A stretch of DNA of 64,000 nt from Promethearchaeota archaeon (GTDB lineage Archaea > Asgardarchaeota > Lokiarchaeia > Sigyniarchaeales > SOKP01), in contig JAHPZE010000001.1 in the NCBI GenBank assembly GCA_019058365.1, forward strand, positions 352,001 through 416,000, read 5' to 3'. How positions within the stretch are numbered: position 1 is the stretch's first letter; each line of letters begins with the position of its first letter. This document shows, piece by piece, positions 12,391 to 14,233 of the stretch. The position numbers were made by a program, and so were the translations under genes. Below the pieces are notes generated by a model, which was given only the letters and a program-made list of their open reading frames with translations, ran no database searches and had not been told where the DNA came from.

Positions 12391-12421
12391 TCTCCCTCCT
12401 CCATAGTACCTCCTCCTAAAA
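12391..12421. repeat. Boundary repeat copy 1
   Basis: TCTCCCTCCTCCATAGTACCTCCTCCTAAAA aligns with the copies at 13233 and 14203. Confidence 0.65.
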
Positions 12422-12443
12422 GAATAAGAAATGAGAGATGAAT

Positions 12444-12863
12444 TTAGATCTTTAAAAAATCAGTTTTTTTAATTAAGTCTTCTGTCGTGAACACTGTTAT
12501 TTCTTCTTGGTTTTGTTTTAATCTTCTATCATTTGACCATATATAAGATTTAAGTGCCAATGCAAGAGCCACATATATTGTATCTTTAGGATCGGGAGAG
12601 ATTTTTCCAGCTTTATCCATAAAAGGGATTATCTCCTTTTTTGAAATAACCGTGATCTGCTCTTTTAATAAATCTAAGAATTGGTTAAATTCTTTACGGG
12701 ATCGGTGAGTCTTCTTGAGAATGAGTTCTTCATATTTAGCAAATTCGTTGAATAAGAATTCGGGAGCAAAAAGTTGTAATTTATCGTTAATTATGAGCTC
12801 AGCAGTCGATCCCTTTTTTATTAAAGCAGCAAAAAGGATATTAGCATCAACAACTAATTTCAT
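12444..12863 (-). CDS. vapC: PIN-domain (VapC-like) toxin
   Basis: MKLVVDANIL, PDPKDTIYVALAL, IWSNDRRL. Confidence 0.9.
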   Translation of the reverse strand: MKLVVDANILFAALIKKGSTAELIINDKLQLFAPEFLFNEFAKYEELILKKTHRSRKEFNQFLDLLKEQITVISKKEIIPFMDKAGKISPDPKDTIYVALALALKSYIWSNDRRLKQNQEEITVFTTEDLIKKTDFLKI

Positions 12864-12866
12864 TTT

Positions 12867-13091
12867 TTATTCGCTCTTATAGTGTTTTAATAAGAGTTCA
12901 CTTATTTCTCTTCCAAGATTTAAAGCGTCTTCTGGAGATATTTCACTATCAATTCGAAAAGTTTTCATAAAATTTAATTGTGCAATCTTTTTTTTGATTG
13001 AATCTCTTGCTACTTCAGACCAATTAATTTCTGGGAAATCTTCCATCATTTTTTTTAATTCATTGGGAATTGATAAAGTTAGATTTGCCAT
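12867..13091 (-). CDS. Ribbon-helix-helix antitoxin
   Basis: MANLTLSIPNELKKMM...EINWSEVARDSI; 3 nt upstream of the PIN gene. Confidence 0.85.
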   Translation of the reverse strand: MANLTLSIPNELKKMMEDFPEINWSEVARDSIKKKIAQLNFMKTFRIDSEISPEDALNLGREISELLLKHYKSE

Positions 13092-13118
13092 TTTAATTTT
13101 AGTTTGTATATTTTTTAT

Positions 13119-13144
13119 TATGTGAATATATGTGAATACACATA
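13119..13144. promoter_or_regulatory. Probable RHH auto-operator
   Basis: TATGTGAATA direct repeat plus the palindrome TATGTG-AATA-CACATA in the antitoxin promoter. Confidence 0.55.
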
Positions 13145-13207
13145 TTAATAATTATCCAGAAATTATTTTTTATAAAAATAAAATATTCTTGAATTTTACT
13201 AATAATG

Positions 13208-13264
13208 TAAAATTTACTTATTATTCCCTTTATTGCCCTCCCCCGTGATGCCTTCCTCCTAAAA
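13208..13264. repeat. Boundary repeat copy 2
   Basis: Core TTGCCCTCCCCCGTGATGCCTTCCTCCTAAAA; upstream TAAAATTTACTTATT is shared with copy 3. Confidence 0.65.
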
Positions 13265-13384
13265 AGTTAAATTATCAACTAATACCTTGTTTTAGGGGTC
13301 TAAAATGAAGTATTTTTTAAATTCCTTGATAAATAATCAAATACTCCAACAATTTTGTAACCCAATACTTCAAGAATCTATAAA

Positions 13385-13888
13385 CTATGAATCAATTGAT
13401 TTAAGACTCTTTAAATCTTCTGAGAGGTCATTGAACCAAAAACGGAAGTTCTCATTAATCTCTCTTATTTTTCTGATTAAAAAGGGGATTGTATTAATTT
13501 GATCAAAAAATGAACTATCCATGGTAATAATACAATCACATTCACAAATAGCAGTGGCAAAAATTAAGCAATCAATTGTATCATTATGAATTGTTTTTAA
13601 TTGAGATGCCAATTCAATAATTAATGGATTATCCGTAAACGATTTTTTTGTTTGGCGTATGTCGTTTTGAATGGCATCAATTCCAATCCTTATATCTTGT
13701 GATGTTACTCTATTTTTTTGAGATGAAAGCTTTAATCCCTTCGCTGTGAGTTCAAAAATAGTTAGATTTGAGTAAAAATATTCATTAGATGTTTTGGATA
13801 AGAGATTGACCAAGACAGTTTGAGGAATATTTTCAATCCCGATTTTAATGAGGGGTAGAAAGTAAGAAGTATCAATAAGAATCTTCAT
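13385..13888 (-). CDS. vapC: PIN-domain (VapC-like) toxin
   Basis: MKILIDTSYFL, TIFE, DTIDCLIFATA, IITMD. Confidence 0.88.
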   Translation of the reverse strand: MKILIDTSYFLPLIKIGIENIPQTVLVNLLSKTSNEYFYSNLTIFELTAKGLKLSSQKNRVTSQDIRIGIDAIQNDIRQTKKSFTDNPLIIELASQLKTIHNDTIDCLIFATAICECDCIITMDSSFFDQINTIPFLIRKIREINENFRFWFNDLSEDLKSLKSIDS

Positions 13889-14136
13889 AATTCATAGTCT
13901 TCAGTCAATTCCTCCTTAAATTGTTTCCATGCATGATAACTTATTTTAGTTTTAGGCGGAGTATTTAATATTTCTTCTATAGAATGAAGTTTTCTTATGA
14001 TTAATTGATCTTGATGAGTATATAATAAAATAGGCTGATTAGGTTCAAATCCGAGTCTTTTTCTAATTTCCTTGGGAGGAAAAATTTCTCCTTTTGATCC
14101 AATTTTTAAAACTATTGCATCAGAATGAGTTGTCAT
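13885..14136 (-). CDS. AbrB/MazE-type antitoxin
   Basis: KIGSKGEIFPPKEIRKRLGF; 4-nt overlap with the PIN gene. Confidence 0.88.
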   Translation of the reverse strand: MTTHSDAIVLKIGSKGEIFPPKEIRKRLGFEPNQPILLYTHQDQLIIRKLHSIEEILNTPPKTKISYHAWKQFKEELTEDYEL

Positions 14137-14151
14137 GATAAAGTAATATAT

Positions 14152-14177
14152 ACTCGAAATATTTAAATTTTTCGAGT
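14152..14177. promoter_or_regulatory. Palindromic operator centred on the TATA box of the AbrB-PIN operon
   Basis: ACTCGAAATATTTAAATTTTTCGAGT, a near-perfect 26-bp palindrome. Confidence 0.65.
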
Positions 14178-14180
14178 CAA

Positions 14181-14233
14181 TAAAATTTTACTTATTTTAC
14201 CATCTCCCTCCCCCGCGGTGTCTCTTGTTAAAA
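14181..14233. repeat. Boundary repeat copy 3
   Basis: Core TCTCCCTCCCCCGCGGTGTCTCTTGTTAAAA. Confidence 0.65.

Follow-up and report, generated by a model that had tools for sequence, protein, structure and literature searches.

How did two unrelated toxin-antitoxin (TA) operons come to lie next to each other in an archaeal genome, each enclosed by copies of the same short repeat? The question is raised by a 64,000-nucleotide (nt) stretch of a Promethearchaeota archaeon, hereafter the window (G000:C16:352001-416000, G000 being the genome, of 4.74 Mb and 29.5% GC, and C16 the contig, of 474 kb), in which three copies of a C-rich element delimit two operons beside feoB. A reading made from the letters alone (the sequence-only reading) had proposed integron-like accretion of cassettes at a recombination site. 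Comparison with relatives identifies the three repeats as worn members of a much better conserved site family, which I call R, and R is most likely a nearly invariant site of about 40 bases where Loki-type Asgard archaea gain, lose and swap packets of TA and antiviral genes. As judged from the sequences, R is conserved family-wide, its copies are co-oriented, cassettes are polymorphic as units and homology breaks inside R; the exchange itself I infer to be conservative, site-specific and catalysed by a factor encoded elsewhere.

Three worn repeats and the site family R

The elements of the array are as follows, the core scores and E-values being those of the site family.

12391-12425, plus strand: R1, worn junction-site copy; core 13/17; family hidden Markov model (HMM) E 1.3e-5
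12444-13091, minus strand: cassette 1 genes; 74-amino-acid (aa) antitoxin candidate at 12867-13091 and PIN_2 toxin at 12444-12863
13128-13145, no strand: palindrome ATATGTG-N4-CACATAT, read from the sequence; invariant in four aligned genomes
13233-13267, plus strand: R2, junction-site copy; core 16/17, spacer variant GTGATG; family HMM E 3.7e-5
13385-14136, minus strand: cassette 2 genes; MazE/AbrB-type antitoxin at 13885-14136 and PIN toxin at 13385-13888, with a 4-nt overlap
14152-14177, no strand: palindrome ACTCGAAA-N10-TTTCGAGT around a TATTTAAA box; kept in homologues of G005, G018, G019 and G022
14203-14237, plus strand: R3, junction-site copy; core 15/17, atypical right arm TCTCTTGTTAAAAGG; family HMM E 1.9e-5

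The C-rich strand is the plus strand in all three copies. With up to three mismatches, the 15-nt core CCCTCCCCCGYGRTG matches three times in the window, against 0.40 expected from shuffled sequence, so that the co-oriented copies which the sequence-only reading had placed at 12391, 13233 and 14203 are borne out; the exact matches to this core are copies 2 and 3. R1 begins 56 nt past the stop of a co-oriented open reading frame (ORF) for a 126-aa membrane protein. In the whole genome, the family-wide HMM gave six hits, three of which are the window copies, within 1.85 kb. The others lie at C25:15476-15516, at C38:12641-12665 and at C16:224091-224127, the last a weak match (E 0.003) on the window's own contig, upstream by 128 kb. 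G000 has no consensus copy, its best one scoring 16/17, and its R array looks like a relic.

Elsewhere R is far less worn. Its overall form is a T-run, then TCCCTCCCCCGTGGTGCCCCCTCC, then an A-run; the consensus can be written as a T-run, ACCT, CCCTCCCCCGTGGTGCCCCCTCC and T(G/A)AAAAAGTA, and that of 269 distinct copies collected with the HMM reads ...TTATCT CCCTCCCCCGTGGTGCCCCCTCC T(A/G)AAAAAGTAG. These copies share an unbroken stretch of 24 positions, each conserved to 90% or more; about 10 nt outside the core, on both sides, conservation abruptly ends. With its 8-nt arms the core forms a perfect mirror repeat, CCTCCCCC-GTGGTG-CCCCCTCC, and the window copies carry no terminal inverted repeats. 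When R was folded as single-stranded DNA with 40 nt on either side, z-scores ranged from -1.9 to +2.4 on the two strands and the core stayed unpaired. A T-run precedes 55 of 96 copies and an A-run follows 74 of them, against a nearby background of 17 and 30, so that a transcript arriving from either direction reaches an oligo-T just ahead of the GC-rich block. These flanking runs probably stop transcription from both sides, leaving R untranscribed.

The distribution of R was determined at increasing distance from G000. Within the genus, 43 of 54 genomes match a degenerate R pattern, many of them with the exact 17-mer CCCTCCCCCGTGGTGCC. When up to one mismatch was allowed, the 17-mer turned up in four genera of the family; the 14 genomes searched from the largest neighbouring family gave no match, and another family of the same order yielded one single-mismatch match, which is within chance. 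In a search of one genome per species (185,579 species), the exact 19-mer was found in metagenome-assembled genomes (MAGs) of Promethearchaeota/Promethearchaeia; about ten bacterial records with the 19-mer (51-74% GC) and four viral contigs with the 17-mer (61-70% GC) were set aside as chance matches. The exact 24-mer is present in more than 120 marine-sediment metagenome contigs. By these searches, R is restricted to Promethearchaeota (Lokiarchaeia-type) MAGs and to marine-sediment metagenomes.

All 99 copies whose surroundings were examined are intergenic. A gene pointing towards R typically stops 5-100 nt away from it and a gene starting beside R does so at a distance of at least 66 nt, so that promoters are spared. 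Scatter through the genome regardless of gene boundaries, which the sequence-only reading had named as the finding that would count against it, is thus not seen, and a miniature inverted-repeat transposable element (MITE) or other dispersed repeat was rejected on the six genome hits, the intergenic position near 3' ends and the lack of inverted termini. Of the neighbouring copies within 5 kb of each other, 30 pairs are co-oriented and one is inverted, while the genes between R copies are co-oriented with R in 30 cases and anti-oriented in 23; polarity is therefore a property of the DNA site and not of transcription. The 31 distinct segments between R copies are mostly 0.5-1.6 kb long and hold one gene or one TA pair each. 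Their content, namely PIN (six times), MazE/AbrB, ParE, DUF433/DUF5615, DUF4238, AbiTii, SIR2, HEPN, DEDDh exonuclease, PD-DExK/NucC-like nucleases and leucine-rich repeat (LRR) proteins, is as expected for a pool of defence and TA cassettes.

A separate observation concerns contig ends. Of 167 copies in metagenome loci L138-L257, 27 are no more than 150 nt from the end of a contig or locus (14.5 expected), and distances of about 85-130 nt form a cluster. The roughly twofold enrichment is weak and approximate, some loci being cut-outs of longer contigs. Ends near R are what forks in an assembly graph would give if populations differ in their cassettes.

Cassettes gained, lost and probably exchanged at R

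Whether cassettes come and go as units can be read from the same locus in relatives. Three further features are needed here.

9455-14405, no strand: variable island of about 4.95 kb with the R array, between an Lrp-like gene (8693-9286) and feoB (14421-16574)
14238-14405, no strand: right-hand island flank, from R3 to the end of feoB; about 92% identical to what follows the final R in G046, and lacking at the empty sites in G005 and G003
9918-11000, plus strand: 360-aa ORF of unassigned function, island resident, with two internal repeats of about 180 aa each

Two relatives, G005:C1 (flanks 94-96% identical) and G003:C30 (81-83%), are without the whole island and have instead about 150-190 unrelated bases, with no R, between the Lrp-like gene and feoB. 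G046:C22 has an island at this place, which begins with the 360-aa gene and an R copy; a ParE-type cassette (61 + 94 aa) follows, then a second R, cassette 1 and a third R, after which the 170-nt flank known from the window leads on to feoB. Cassette 2 is missing. The order in G000 is R, cassette 1, R, cassette 2, R, flank and feoB, and R1 together with 36 nt on its left is common to G046, where it stands behind the homologue of the 360-aa gene. The locus is thus found in three states, empty, with the ParE cassette and cassette 1, or with cassettes 1 and 2, which is the cassette-wise presence and absence that the sequence-only reading had called for. Moreover, the last R of G046 is a hybrid: its flank and arm on the left are those of R2, while on the right they are those of R3, the atypical arm being accompanied by its flank in G046. 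On its sequence, this hybrid is the product expected of exchange inside R.

The cassettes also recur at unrelated places. At 85-90% identity, cassette 1 is bounded by R on either side in G004, G046 and G067, and in both directions similarity ends at R. In G004 it is 85% identical and at another locus, and cassette 2 is 91% identical in G022:C199, where it adjoins an R copy with a different outer flank. Since the core genes of G004 and G022 are only 67-79% identical to those of the window, these values indicate horizontal movement. A VapBC cassette (76 + 138 aa) shows the same R-bounded pattern in six contexts. More distant homologues of cassette 2 (70-80%) occur in G005, G018 and G019 with no flanking R, so the TA family itself is not tied to R.

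Breakpoints were mapped in 13 pairs of R copies with only one flank in common. Counted from the core start, similarity gives out at -4 to +6 or at +14 to +29, which places the breaks at the borders of R. In one pair the spacer variants of R accompany the left side, in a second pair the right; this fits a central overlap region, though it is too little to prove it. The same cassette in different contexts, the same context with different cassettes, homology that breaks inside R, one hybrid junction and two empty sites together uphold the earlier proposal of cassette accretion at a recombination site.

Each interval between repeats in the window contains one complete two-gene operon on the minus strand. 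As far as can be told from the DNA, both have the layout of VapBC-like type II TA modules, with a small antitoxin gene directly upstream of a PIN toxin and a palindrome upstream. The cassette 1 toxin is a PIN_2 protein (Pfam E 1.3e-26). In cassette 2 the toxin matches Pfam PIN above the cut-off (E 6.3e-5) and the antitoxin matches MazE/AbrB slightly below it (E 4.9e-5, 23.6 bits, cut-off 24.7). The two operons are unrelated in sequence (the toxins align at BLASTP E 4.6, the antitoxins not at all) and are no tandem duplication, in agreement with the sequence-only reading. For the first antitoxin, the proposed ribbon-helix-helix (RHH) fold could not be confirmed: the 74-aa protein has no match in Pfam or among PDB sequences, and a monomer model with a predicted local distance difference test (pLDDT) score of 71, in which an unmodelled N-terminus is followed by three helices, found no match in a fold search. 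The palindrome at 13128-13145 is likely the operator of cassette 1 and that at 14152-14177 likely the operator and promoter of cassette 2; both are kept in relatives or homologues, in line with the claim that each operon has its own operator.

Several neighbours of R deserve mention in their own right. The 360-aa ORF has no Pfam or Atlas match; its homologues adjoin R in G046, G006 and other genomes, the family often standing just upstream of R, and single-repeat homologues of about 184 aa lie directly upstream of R in other genomes. In another family a weak S24/S26 peptidase-like domain at the N-terminus is combined with C-termini that vary greatly, one of which gives a toxin-deaminase-like match; this family is upstream of R in 22 of 30 cases and co-oriented with it in 29 of 30. 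Between this gene and R there is usually one small variable gene (DUF2695-like, LRR or of the 184-aa family), examples being 4298-5530 and 3655-4209 in L059 and 4746-6122 and 4064-4684 in L058; the layout recalls polymorphic toxin-immunity pairs. In G004 (L004 = G004:C109, 2-1300 and 2442-2666), cassette 1 and two R copies are set between a tryptophanase-like gene and a diverged duplicate of its tail, the last 74 codons of the full-length gene at about 75% aa identity, an arrangement that looks like a homology-anchored or tail-replacing insertion. Within the island of the window, the non-coding segment 11270-11490, with the hairpin GGGGAGAGACTCTCCCC, resembles contigs of relatives (G005:C73 and C11, G020:C24 and C5) at 76-90% identity and may be another small repeated element.

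How R might act, and the rival explanations

The reading I favour, with about even confidence, is that R is a double-stranded site for conservative cassette exchange by a factor encoded in trans. Cassettes would be inserted, deleted and exchanged by reciprocal recombination inside the 24-bp core of R. The unit moved would run from the right part of one R through a promoter, one gene or a two-gene TA pair and a terminator to the left part of the next R, so that N cassettes would be bounded by N+1 co-oriented R copies. On this view the island of the window carries two such cassettes, RHH?-PIN_2 (the query standing for the fold of the first antitoxin) and AbrB-PIN, with three R copies that have drifted from the consensus.

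A number of observations weigh against this reading. The linked recombinase and the excised circles that the sequence-only reading had suggested looking for did not turn up: no recombinase is linked to R in the R-bearing loci and arrays, and the enzyme for R was not found there; a tyrosine recombinase of any kind is present in only about six of 217 R-bearing loci, and none of 120 metagenome contigs is circular or an excised circle. A single XerA-like gene is present in each R-rich genome, and a few integrases occur sporadically on other contigs; searches of four R-rich genomes of the genus found no serine recombinase and no IS200-type Y1 transposase. The arms of R form a mirror repeat and not an inverted one, unlike the core sites of known tyrosine and serine recombinases. 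Breakpoint mapping rests on few and related examples, in which the conserved core masks the exact crossover. Finally, with copies as degenerate as those of G000, the system may be inactive in this genome.

Matches to PF00589 in G000 are confined to C7 and C46, with none on the 474-kb C16, and none lies beside the R arrays of G043, G069 and G116. A 302-aa tyrosine recombinase with a 182-aa partner does stand between R copies in G058 and G042, as a compact module of 1.74 kb with its own ends (L061, which is G058:C122, 2295-4030; L062, 4248-5982). It was not assigned as the enzyme of R, being found in 22 of 135 genomes of the family and absent from G000 and from the R-rich G004, G006, G046, G050 and G069. 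In G058 and G042 the module is followed by a C-rich box pair, TACCCCCCTTCATTGATTTTCCCCTCAAAAAG, which is loosely like the right half of R and may be this integrase's own site.

A bolder proposal, which I regard as possible but doubtful, is that R is the substrate of an unrecognised Asgard recombination system that works on a non-palindromic homopurine/homopyrimidine mirror-repeat site and is mechanistically unrelated to integrons. It would possibly act via non-B DNA (a triplex, or a G-rich or i-motif strand) or via a guide, and R would then be a common currency for moving defence and TA cassettes between species. The main rival to the trans-acting site, itself a possibility I put clearly lower than that site, dispenses with a dedicated enzyme: R would have a different primary role, such as a terminator or insulator that acts in both directions and that mobile defence cassettes bring with them, and RadA would recombine the patches of about 40 bp that R copies provide, GC-rich in a 30% GC genome. 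The want of a linked or co-distributed recombinase speaks for it, as do the location of R at gene 3' ends, the T-run and A-run flanks that put an oligo-T right before the GC-rich block for transcripts from either side, and mirror-repeat arms ill suited to known recombinases. The apparent crossover point, moreover, is not fixed (one pair puts it to the right of position 13, another to the left of 11), and in G004 the position of cassette 1 beside the diverged tryptophanase tail fits a homology-anchored insertion. But homologous recombination sets no constraint on sequence, whereas copies from four genera and hundreds more from metagenomes agree to at least 90% at 24 positions. For a cassette to enter next to a lone resident R, a circular intermediate or an unusual double invasion would be required, and no breakpoint was ever seen within cassette sequence common to two genomes. 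The trans-acting site is the most likely of the two.

That R has no part in recombination, and is merely a 3'-end signal or protein-binding site of which each cassette brings its own copy, is unlikely. The 3'-end position, the T and A runs and the fact that each cassette, promoter included, can be transcribed independently of its neighbours speak for such a signal; it leaves unexplained why homology ends in R on both sides, why G046 has a hybrid R and why R copies are co-oriented 30:1 when gene orientation is 30:23, and genes on both strands relative to R make a role at the RNA level unlikely. An integron explanation, with R as a CALIN-type cluster of attC sites (clusters of attC sites lacking integron-integrases, CALINs) served by the integrase IntI, is very improbable. 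It draws on the co-oriented sites between promoter-bearing TA and defence cassettes and on a reported enrichment of archaeal integrons and CALINs among Asgard genomes, in which TA cassettes are common (PMC9668308). R and its flanks, however, do not fold and leave the core unpaired, there is no R''/L''-L'/R' palindrome, the cassette genes show no orientation bias, and no tyrosine recombinase is found on the 474-kb contig or beside large arrays. Least credible of all is the suggestion of the sequence-only reading that the repeats are duplicated coding 3' ends (...HHGGG(R/Q)*) left by serial integration. In the HHGGG frame most copies do meet a stop within about one codon (136 of 192 within eight codons of the first H), and next to cassette 1 in G004 there is indeed the duplicated tail of another gene. 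The nearby stop, though, is explained by the conserved AGGTAA and A-T run; in 188 of 192 consensus copies the HHGGG frame stays open for fewer than 50 codons upstream, no frame is open, the motif ends none of 11,579 long open frames of this genome, and conservation breaks off abruptly some 10 nt to the left and right of the core.

Should R prove to be a genuine recombination site, Asgard archaea of the Loki type would own a platform for exchanging antiviral and TA cassettes that equals integrons in outcome while using a different kind of site. This would give a handle on the shuffling of accessory genes in the closest archaeal relatives of eukaryotes, as well as a 24-base probe for variable islands in metagenomes and a defined DNA substrate with which to fish out the responsible protein. 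For G000 the outcome is more modest: 9455-14405 is a recently acquired, decaying island whose two VapBC-like modules are mobile cargo and not core regulators.

R beside known systems

A full-text literature search for the motif and for Asgard cassette systems returned no description of R or of arrays like these in Asgard archaea, and an Rfam scan of 11000-15000 at a permissive threshold gave chance-level hits only, none at R. Aloposons (PMC8813620), giant-gene transposons at tRNA sites, are unrelated. The closest likeness is to integrons and CALINs: co-oriented short sites split small cassettes, these are gained and lost one by one between relatives, the content is mainly TA and defence genes, and arrays often have no integrase nearby. 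The sites themselves differ. An attC is an imperfect palindrome of 55-140 nt conserved in structure only, whereas R is a 24-bp homopyrimidine/homopurine mirror repeat without a hairpin, nearly invariant in sequence. R cassette genes stand on either strand, each with its own promoter, and IntI, attI and the Pc promoter are absent, unlike in integrons. R was accordingly rejected as an attC (no hairpin, no boxes, invariant sequence, no gene-orientation bias, no IntI). The archaeal integrons and CALINs that Ghaly et al. 2022 (PMC9668308) describe in Asgard genomes were recognised by the structure of their attC sites and are not the same as R arrays.

The pdif modules of Acinetobacter plasmids offer a second parallel. 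These small gene modules, often TA, are bounded by XerC/XerD-type sites and presumably moved by a housekeeping recombinase encoded elsewhere. R likewise bounds small, often TA, modules, but pdif sites are 28 bp long with inverted arms and alternate in orientation, while R copies are co-oriented with mirror arms, and no evidence ties the archaeal XerA to R. A dif-type site was rejected because CCTCCCCC and CCCCCTCC are mirror images on one strand and the halves have no dyad, in agreement with the earlier remark that the repeat lacks obvious attC boxes and dif-like symmetry.

Tandem accretion at att sites resembles the R arrays in that a repeated site delimits successively acquired DNA at the 3' ends of transcription units. 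R units differ in being 0.5-1.6 kb long without an integrase of their own, in occupying many loci per genome and in a site that is not within a tRNA or a coding tail; a tRNA-derived att site was rejected for the window, no tRNA being found in 8000-16000. As short GC-rich intergenic elements following genes, R copies finally recall repetitive extragenic palindromic (REP) sequences and bacterial interspersed mosaic elements (BIMEs). REPs are palindromic and present in hundreds of copies throughout core operons, whereas R is non-palindromic, numbers 1-12 copies per genome and is found only in variable islands.

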